A stretch of DNA of 64,000 bases, from positions 62,001 through 126,000 of the forward strand of contig JAAILG010000004.1 in assembly GCA_012026655.1 (NCBI GenBank), in the 5' to 3' direction. Made by a program: the position numbers and the translations under genes. Positions within the stretch are counted from its first letter, which is position 1. Every line of letters begins with the position of its first letter. The notes beneath the pieces were generated by a model that had not been told where the DNA came from, did no database searches, and worked only from the letters and a program-made list of their open reading frames with translations. The stretch comes from Hydrolagus affinis. Its lineage: Eukaryota. Of this stretch, positions 17,290 to 25,378 are shown one piece after another.

Positions 17290-17506
17290 GGTGTCCTGAG
17301 GCTCAGTGGTTAGAGCACTCGCCTTGCAAGCGAGAGATCTGGTTTCAATTCTAGGCAGGGCGAAACCTTGGGCAAGTTTCCTTACTCCACACACCTAATA
17401 ATAATCCTTGAAAAAATCAATAATGTATTGGTCATGTGAAGCGCTTTGAGATATCTAAAAGATGTGAAAATCACTACATCATAAATGCAAGGATTATTAT
17501 TATTAT
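17290..17506 (+). mobile_element. tRNA-SINE with internal deletion of the body
   Basis: Head with GCCTTGCAAG loop jumps from TTGGTCAT directly to the GTGAAGCGCTTT tail. Confidence 0.85.
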
Positions 17507-20942: not shown

Positions 20943-21714
20943 GGCTGGTTGAGCTCGCTCACCGATCAGTGAGTGGGTTTTACCTTAACCTTGCAGCTCA
21001 TGCAGAATTGTGGAAAATTATTCAATTTCAATATGGAAGTCGTTTTTATCATAATTCTTCACACCAACCGGCTCACAAACTAAGACTGAGTTCACATAAC
21101 CAATCCTCCAGGTGAACCGGTCGTTCATTTCATGACTGTTTGGGGAACCTTGCCGTCCCCAAATGGGCCACCTGCAAAATGCACAACAATTACCCCGTGA
21201 AACTACTTGAGACATTTTGACATTAGAGGCGCTGCGTTAAATGCAAGGATCATTATGTATTACTGTAACAACAAGTCTACGTTTCCGGGACAGTCTGAAG
21301 GCAAGTGCAGTCGTGCTCTGAAATTGAACAGCATTGTGTTCAGGAATATTTTAATAATCAACTTTAACTGTTGGTTTGCAGCCAGGAAAATGAAATGCTG
21401 TGTTAGTCCCAACGTTCCAGAGAGCGCGCAGAACTATTTTTAATAGACTTGTGCGCTTTTACAACTGATCCCTTGGGTCGTCTCTCCACTGTATTGCAGA
21501 TCATCAACTTGTTTTTTCATCATGTACCACCTAGGAGAATGACACTTAATAAAATTAAAGTCTTGGATTCTGTCCAGGAAATGAGATGAAAGAATGTATT
21601 TCACAGAATGTTCTTGCGGGTAGGATTTCTCCAGCTAACTGGAAATAAAAATTGGATCCTTGAGCTATCTAACAATGGAGTGAGACTCCAGTCTTCATAG
21701 AATATAATGATGTA

Positions 21715-22068: not shown

Positions 22069-22255
22069 ATACCCACCCAGCCTCATCATGTCGAAACATC
22101 TCACAAATATTTGCCGTCAAGCACATTGACTGTAGATTCTGAAAGTCATCTTTAATTCAGTCGCAGACACATCGAAACTCTGGTCTGCACTGTACTCAGA
22201 GGTGAGATTTTTGGAGGCATGAAGAGCCCTACCGTGTCTAATCGGTCCTAACAGC

Positions 22256-22561
22256 ACTATCGTTGCTGATCCCACTAATCATTCCAGTGAAGCGTCAAGA
22301 TAAGGCAAATCCTCCGAGCTAATCGAGTGCCATCTGTGACCCATTTTGGGGAAATGTGTATTGCCATCGGAATAGCTGCCGCGTGCAATTTATACGTGTG
22401 TATGACACTACCCCCATTGTTCCTGCAGGCTCCACGAGGGGAAAGAAATAGGGAACAAAAAAGTACATGTAGCTAAACATCATTGGCATGTACAAACAAA
22501 ACAAACACTGCAAAAATGAAAACGGGATTGGAAACAGATTGCTGTTCAAATGCACTGTTTG
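22256..22561. repeat. Diverged duplicated non-coding module, copy A (paralogue of 23917-24211)
   Basis: Collinear shared blocks at an offset of about 1.64-1.65 kb; see findings. Confidence 0.85.
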
Positions 22562-23916
22562 ACATCAATAATTTCAAACGCACGTAGAAACAAATGGAGA
22601 AGTGGATTCGTGTCCTGTCAATCTTTTACGGCTTTCTGCATCGGGCAATCCGGAAATGAAAGCTGTCTCCGCTCGGAACGAAGGATGAGATCACGAAAAG
22701 CAGGACCGAGCAAACGACAAACAGCTAGAACATTTAAGAAACTGTGGGATGATGCTTTGATATCAGGTGATATAAAAACAATGAAATGAGGTTATACAAT
22801 CTCAGAGGTTTGGGGCTTTCTGAATGCTCAATGCATGCGGAGAGTGGAATGAATGAAACAATCTAGTTTTCAGCGATGTCATATCACACTGTATTATAAC
22901 TTCGGAGAGCCTTCCCTTGTCAGGAGCCACTAAAGATACAGACCAGATATTGTCCTCACTCTACGCAGATACTGATCTGCATACGCTGGACGGCTCTACA
23001 AATCAATGTGCACCCACCCGATCCCTGTACACATATCAGAAACGAATCTAGAAGTGACAGAGAGATGAAAGCCACAACTTGTACATGTTACAGCCGAAAT
23101 TCAACCTTGGCTCATGAGATGCTTTGTTGTAAAATTTGAGATGGTGCAGCAATTATTCTTCGATTCCACCTTAATTTGGAAGTCGAATTGTTTTTTAAAA
23201 GCCCTGTCGACTAGCTCTCAATCAAAGAAAGAATTTTCTATGCAATTCTAAACTTTTAAGGCAGAATGGTGGTACAGGCTGCGATTGTTCTACGACACAA
23301 TTTACATTGATGCAGTTTCCTATCATGCCATCGAGTCATCTCATAACGCTTCACAAGATTAGTAGTGTAGCGAAAACAAAGAGTAATATAACCAAACCCT
23401 TGCTGTTGCCACAATAACTAGCATTTGTATTGCATCTTTCACAAAGAAGAATATCTCAGAGTACTTTAGAATGATGGTGTTAGCCGCTGAGCTAAAAGGG
23501 CGGGTGGTGGGTAGGTGACAATTGGCACGGTTGAAGAGGGAGAAGAGGGTCGAGAGAATTACAGAGGTTGGAAGCGTTTTAAAGCTGGGAGACTAGTGAT
23601 GGCCACAACTAAGAAGTCAAGTAAGGAGGTGACCAAAACGTAAATGAGAGTGTTGGATGGGATATGGTGTGAAGTAAGGGCAGAAGTGGGCAATGTAATA
23701 CAAAATCACATTTGTACAGCGACTTTCATATCGGGAAGACATTCCAAGGCGCTGGATGAAAGTCCTGAGGCGCAATGAAAGTTACAAAGCAATATTGGAC
23801 CCTGGAAAGCTATGTGCAGACTCAACAAGCATCCAATGTATTACCCAAGACTTTGCTATAATGATGAGAACTTGGAATGGAAGATGATCCTTGTAGCTTA
23901 AGCGCTGCACACCTCA

Positions 23917-24211
23917 ACTATTGTGGTGAAACATTCCTGGACTGTACAAGTTGTGCGAGCTAAGATCGCATTCCAATCTCAAGCCACTTGTGGAGACAGC
24001 CTAGCGGTCAACGAAATAGCTGCCGCAAGCAATTTCCATCAGTGCCCCTGACCCTCGATCACTCCCGCTGTCTCCTGGCTCCCTGGTAGGAAAGAAATAG
24101 CAACAAAAAGAACTAAATATCATTGGCATTCATAAGCAAAGAGTACATCGGCAGAATGGCCAAAAGAAAGAGAGCGATTGAAAGCAGATGGCACTTCAAA
24201 TGCAATGTTTG
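23917..24211. repeat. Diverged duplicated non-coding module, copy B
   Basis: AATAGCTGCCGC, GGAAAGAAATAG, CTAAAYATCATTGGCAT and TTCAAATGCA.TGTTTG shared with copy A. Confidence 0.85.
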
Positions 24212-24329
24212 GGCTTGGAATTTCTTGTGTATTCCCAGGGCTGTGTGGAAGTAGCCAGGGCATGAAAGTCTGGATGTGTTTTACCATTGCATCTCCTCCC
24301 AGATATGAAGTCAACATCCAATCCAATGT

Positions 24330-24626
24330 GACCTGTTTCCTACATCTGCAAAACTACCTGATCCAGGAAACTGCACCTTTCACATCAGTAGGGCCTCTCT
24401 TCCCCCACCCTTTGGACCACCATCCCATATCCTTTTGCCCATTCCCTTGACTGTTTCAAGGTCCATCTCAAGGTCTTCCTCTTTGGTCACCCTCCTACCC
24501 CCACCTTGCTGTCCTCCACCACCTCCCGACCCCAACTCCCAGCTCAGGGTGCAAATCCGAGATGCCCCAACACCTTGGAATTCCCTCCTATCATGAGAAA
24601 GACTATACAAATGCAATTTGTTGTTC
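24330..24626 (+). mobile_element. L2 3' fragment
   Basis: CCCTTTGGACC..TTCAAGGTCCATCTCAAG..CTTTGGTC..ACTATACAAATGCAATTTGTTG. Confidence 0.7.
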
Positions 24627-25061: not shown

Positions 25062-25378
25062 TAATAATTGCATTTAATATAGTGCTTTATCATGTCTTCA
25101 TAACATATCAAAACACTACATAAAATACATCACAAAGTGAAATTACTATATTTTATAAGCGAAATGCGGTAACCAATTGTGCGCAGCAGTGTCCCACAAA
25201 CTGTCATGGATTGAGTTACCAAATTATTATCATTATTATTGAAAGGATTGACTAACAACTGGATTCCTACTTACTGTTAGGTAAGGAAACTTGCCAAAGG
25301 TTTTGCACTGCCCGGGAATCGAACCCAGGTGCTCTCGCTTGCAAGGTGAGTGCTCTAACCAATATGCTACAGGACTCC
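25062..25378 (-). mobile_element. tRNA-SINE, long variant, full length (TGC loop)
   Basis: Reverse complement of head (GGGTTCGATTCCCGGG), extra GACTAACAACTGGATTCCTACTTACTG segment, body and tail. Confidence 0.85.

Follow-up and report, generated by a model that had tools for sequence, protein, structure and literature searches.

Two likely non-coding segments in a 64,000-nucleotide stretch of DNA (the window, positions 62001-126000 of a 264,929-base contig in an assembly of 1.11 Gb) are homologous copies of a single stretch of 320-350 bp, and the pair is, on balance, probably an old local duplication that has been decaying largely neutrally. The copies, A and B, of ~350 letters each and in direct orientation, lie 1.65 kb apart (Table 1). 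Local alignment over their full extents gave ~71% identity and a score of 146, compared to a mean of 27.9 (sd 4.0, maximum 47) in 500 dinucleotide shuffles, confirming their homology. The core alignment consisted of 179 matches, 71 mismatches and 33 gap columns (71.6% identity), with a K2P divergence of ~0.36 substitutions per site (0.35-0.5 by simulation), and the low share of transitions between the copies (45%) was ordinary, comparable values being found in 71 of the 291 repeat pairs described below. The preliminary description of this DNA had placed paired blocks at 22315/23956, 22371/24015, 22428/24077, 22473/24113 and 22524/24174, and all of these positions were verified, as was the degree of matching in the last block. 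The DNA between the blocks, described there as unalignable spacers, aligned as well within the core. Among the blocks themselves, AACAAAAAG, listed as common to both copies, is exact in copy B, but copy A carries one extra A; similarly, the CAGATG assigned to the last block is present on the plus strand of B but absent from that of A. The view of the pair as an old, low-copy, non-coding direct duplicate was supported.

Table 1. Positions of the duplicated copies, their blocks and the neighbouring repeat X (window numbering unless a contig or locus is named)
Feature	Positions	Strand	Remarks
Copy A	22203..22561	.	well-aligned core ~22244-22561
Copy B	23865..24211	.	same orientation as A; core ~23886-24211
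Block AATAGCTGCCGC-NN-GCAATTT	22371..22391	+	pairs with 24015-24035
Blocks GGCTCC-N6-GGAAAGAAATAG, AACAAAAA, CTAAAYATCATTGGCAT	22428..22489	+	pair with 24077-24129
38-nt block	22524..22561	+	pairs with 24174-24211, 31/38 matching
Spacer	22562..23864	.	repeat-poor up to ~23110, old repeat fragments beyond
Repeat X1	20985..21091	.	same repeat X, 1.1 kb before copy A
Repeat X2	23111..23264	.	old palindromic, MITE-like dispersed repeat, in spacer
Further repeat X copies	contig 179185-179352, 264424-264639; L059-L088		

The patchy conservation between the copies had been taken as a sign of motif-level selection, and we compared it with two neutral expectations. The empirical null drew on repeat pairs of this contig with matching scores: a sample of 900 out of 1199 supplied 213 of them, and all 1199 then supplied 291. 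These pairs are not independent, the 213 occupying 108 distinct places; the simulated null consisted of 255 matched simulations of 1500. Most statistics fell within these nulls. A longest run of at least 12 was reached in 96 of the 213 repeat pairs, and the density of 8+ runs per column was matched or exceeded in 43 of them; the share of columns in 6+ runs was reached by 62/291 pairs and 24/255 simulations; and the windowed variance of identity gave P values of 0.21-0.67 over six settings of the simulation, with the longest run likewise ordinary. Only the runs of 10+ nt (four, of 10-12 bases) were in mild excess, with equivalent values in 7/213 and 8/291 repeat pairs, in 2/255 simulations and in 1/113 to 5/76 of earlier ones. 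This excess, which was one among several statistics tried and also the feature that first drew notice to the pair, speaks mildly for constraint. The islands are probably for the most part runs of identity left by random substitution at 70% identity.

Recent substitutions were assessed in two close relatives, A and B, aligned over the region. With both relatives pooled, copy A carried 20 changed sites in 360 bp, compared to 33 in 1302 bp of the spacer (ratio 2.2, P = 0.006; P = 0.017 with five further rows assigned to the spacer). The contig of relative A over copy A showed 14/425 differences compared to 29/3071 in seven other long pieces (P = 0.0004). Its 521-bp piece over copy B (23964-24484) showed 3/521 compared to 26/2550 (P = 0.25), the second-fewest differences but one among the eight long pieces. 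Relative B differed from the window by 2.0-2.4%, with 49 differences over 22195-24225; the 40 listed reach to 23877 and place at least 2 changes in copy B, with up to 9 more, and because they stop there the nine remaining differences probably lie mostly within this copy. As an observation in its own right, copy A (22234-22550) changed ~2-fold faster than the spacer next to it, the ratio being 5.1, 1.8 and 1.6 on the three lines.

CpG sites contributed similarly to the changes in copy A (4/20) and in the spacer (7/33), and therefore do not explain the fast rate of copy A. Possible causes are local mutation rate, ancestral polymorphism and mild constraint on the spacer. Within copy A, 14 of the 20 changes fell at columns identical between the copies (13.3 expected), and 2 of the 20 fell inside 6+ runs (5.1 expected, P = 0.087), or 1 of 13 when changes on the window's own line were left aside (3.0 expected, P = 0.16). 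Positions 22526 and 22543 of the 38-nt block were changed in both relatives, and 22550, located inside TTCAAATGCA, was changed in relative B, as seen in two studies of this relative. Of seven changes in copy A specific to the window, two were confirmed by a same-species contig, the other five lying where same-species coverage is absent. Sequencing runs X1 and X12 were essentially identical to the window and thus provided no outgroup. Neither copy acts as a conserved element over its whole extent, although constraint on individual blocks is possible. Taken together, the patchiness within the nulls, the fast rate of copy A, the change in TTCAAATGCA and the common occurrence of the proposed motifs (see below) are largely what neutral decay would produce.

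The extent of the duplicated unit was examined in the DNA around the copies. The spacer showed no homology above chance to the DNA before A or after B except for repeat X, one copy of which precedes each of A and B, a hint of a larger duplicated unit. Repeat X is an old palindromic element of ~190 bp with 44 matches (217 candidates) genome-wide, the copies being 66-80% like the family majority and the profile matching on both strands at most loci, a structure that suggests a MITE-like element. X1 and X2 resemble each other (50-64%) no more than they resemble the family (~60%), so that their co-duplication with the module was not supported. A larger unit likewise found no support: the flanks were unalignable, and 23, 106 and 98 of 120 null pieces scored equally well.

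Under the preferred reading, a single old local duplication of a short stretch would have occurred by unequal crossing-over or replication slippage; later transposon insertions and deletions would have widened the spacer and erased the flank homology, and the copies would thereafter likely have decayed without strong selection. The argument for largely neutral decay is that neither copy is detectably slower than its surroundings in close relatives. Repeat copies only ~60% alike are still recognisable at the locus, which we also count in its favour, as we do, weakly, the RNA sample without reads on either copy (see below). Counted against it are the limitation of the homology to the module, with its unalignable flanks, the rate of copy A above that of the spacer, for which neutral decay does not account, the excess of 10+ runs, and the shortfall of changes in 6+ runs noted above for the 20 and the 13 changes. 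The duplication is roughly 15-20 times as old as the split from relative B, a relative age only; the rate of 7e-10 per generation known from a shark pedigree (PMC10587355) was left out of the dating, and the cited part of PMC10620051 gives no per-year rate. Local (tandem) duplicates of non-coding DNA can decay like ancestral repeats. The pair resembles such duplicates in its two close direct copies, uniform-looking decay and repeats within the spacer, and differs from them in its mild excess of long runs and in the faster rate of copy A relative to its neighbourhood.

The contig around the pair is gene-poor and probably represents a gene desert or a very long intron: a crude exon scan of the 265 kb found no gene, and Pfam searches of 282 of 3686 repeat-poor frames and 14 local frames yielded no more than two matches, both below the cutoff, a screen that short exons could escape. 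About 29% of the contig was masked by self-similarity and tandem repeats. Rfam searches of the contig returned only tRNA matches, which are likely SINE heads; those in the window lay in high-copy repeats at 17292-17363 and 25312-25369. Elsewhere, an inverted pair at contig 230935-231186 and 231745-231995 (L021), 69% alike over 255 bp and separated by ~560 bp, has few copies in the contig and may correspond to the termini of an old DNA transposon, and L012:2160-3011 (minus strand) holds two frames, of 206 and 77 aa, which resemble a broken CR1-type LINE ORF2 but gave no Pfam match.

Selection on a tandem-duplicated enhancer pair, that is, shadow enhancers that arose by duplication within a gene desert or a long intron and whose factor-binding blocks are held while other bases drift and copy A is relaxed or diverging, offers a tentative alternative that we consider possible but rather unlikely. 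The excess of 10+ nt runs, the restriction of homology to an enhancer-sized stretch, the gene-poor contig, the fewer than expected recent changes in 6+ runs (P = 0.09-0.16) and the few differences in the copy B piece of relative A are all consistent with such a pair. They have to be set against the ~2-fold faster rate of copy A than of the spacer, the changed block base 22550 and the changes in copy B in relative B (at least 2 among those listed, up to 9 more), and against a contig on which no target gene was identified. The motifs named in the preliminary description, which we take to be of the Sox, NFI and bHLH types, were also frequent in background: among 289 repeat-poor 350-bp windows of the contig, the Sox-like motif occurred in 55%, the NFI half-site in 40% and CAGATG in 26%. 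Given these frequencies and the fast copy A, the case for motif-level purifying selection on a duplicated enhancer appeared weak. We regard as doubtful the more specific proposal that the pair is an ancient tandem enhancer pair of a gene desert in which only short factor-binding cores are selected, with the ~2-fold faster rate of copy A than of neighbouring DNA, sparing most cores, representing asymmetric divergence in progress.

Known duplicated regulatory elements offer partial parallels. Duplication-born enhancers are common according to the cited part of Ness et al. (PMC13345019), which reports an origin by local duplication for 18-34% of the shadow-enhancer sets in fly and mouse; the pair shares with those described there the adjacent, enhancer-sized segments with detectable homology, and differs in being known here from sequence alone, with no target gene identified. 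As far as the cited parts of the respective papers go, dCNEs (McEwen et al., PMC2781166) have conservation between human and fish as their defining feature, one such threshold being 65% over 40 bp between human and fugu (cited in PMC3595034), and lie near paralogous genes, mostly originating from genome doublings; like them and like paralogous UCNEs (PMC3531063), the pair consists of low-copy non-coding paralogues with short common cores. Its copies are non-coding, non-repetitive and few, as dCNEs are, but they lie 1.65 kb apart on one contig, both within 2 kb and with no gene recognised beside them. Nor are they slowed among close relatives, as the substitution rate is not well below that of the flanks: copy A is ~2.2 times faster than the spacer, and copy B is not significantly lower.

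An origin from a very old and now rare transposon, as two adjacent insertions, a local hop or its terminal repeats, is improbable in our view. Both copies are surrounded by old repeats, and a DNA search of the own genome with A or B, which returned only these two, is insensitive at 70% identity: a diverged repeat X copy used as a gauge retrieved only 1 other, although 44 matches exist. For this reason we relied on pattern scans for copy number. Across the whole 1.11-Gb genome, an exact 17-mer of the middle blocks was confined to the two copies, and looser patterns gave 3, 23 (control 3) and 0 extra loci. None of these 26 loci had flanking homology: the 23 had flank scores of 19-31 and 16-26 compared to 88 and 51 for the true pair, and the other 3 (the 22371 block with 2 mismatches) scored 28-44 even with the motif counted.

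The simulated power of these scans per extra copy was 62%, 40%, 18% and 10% at 0.15, 0.2, 0.25 and 0.3 substitutions from the ancestor. At 0.2, the 40% power per full-length copy makes six or more extra copies unlikely, although this argument weakens at 0.3. Local alignment found no third copy in the window, and none was found in the 265-kb contig, where other places scored at most 45 and the next best match of a two-copy profile had E = 0.2; this profile also found nothing next to 30 repeat X loci. Copy A had a depth of one contig in relatives A and B at 80% likeness, a gapped pattern had no match in metagenome contigs, and a primer-binding site, a polypurine tract and a target duplication were all unseen by eye. 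The earlier remark that no third copy was seen therefore held in the window, the contig and the genome-wide pattern scans. A dispersed family should have many copies, and none turned up in these scans, whose power for a single copy ranged from 10% to 62% according to its age. The scans thus make a large family unlikely but would be compatible with a few very old copies.

That the copies are paralogous non-coding exons, structured RNAs or remnants of a coding exon pair is very improbable, as the features expected of each were missing from the pair. The middle blocks on the minus strand do resemble a branch point and pyrimidine tract, copy B having an AG at 24083-24084, and two short stretches show third-position-like differences. 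However, a duplicated coding exon pair should have a shared frame, splice sites and third-position bias; no shared open frame was found, the block offsets break the frame, the phase bias was ordinary (65/500) and none of 14 frames taken from the two copies and the beginning of the spacer had a Pfam match, in agreement with the earlier conclusion that such a pair is unlikely. Stops in all three minus-strand frames of copy B after 24082 were confirmed, and copy A indeed has no AG at the corresponding site, but it has one ~13 nt deeper into the would-be exon. Structured RNAs, also suggested earlier, would be expected to show a shared stable fold or an Rfam match together with expression. The module had no match in Rfam, fold z-scores were +1.2, -1.4, -0.5 and +0.1, and consensus folds were weak and scattered, with no convincing helix shared between the copies. 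One sample of relative A, tissue not recorded, provided 13.87 M and 14.87 M single-cell polyA records from two runs (27% and 30% of these runs), and no read fell on either copy, which is weak evidence from a single sample; the only reads at the locus, 8 in number and all partial, fell on the repeat at 23691-23758.

A literature search found nothing on this locus, and the block motifs brought only unrelated papers; CNE coordinates in supplements lay outside that search. Constraint on the blocks, if real, would make the pair a guide to candidate binding sites by paralogue footprinting and a compact test case of enhancer birth via local duplication. If the decay is neutral, as we favour, the pair itself would be of little import, and the island-like patterns left by old duplicates in this genome would be easy to misread as regulatory motifs.
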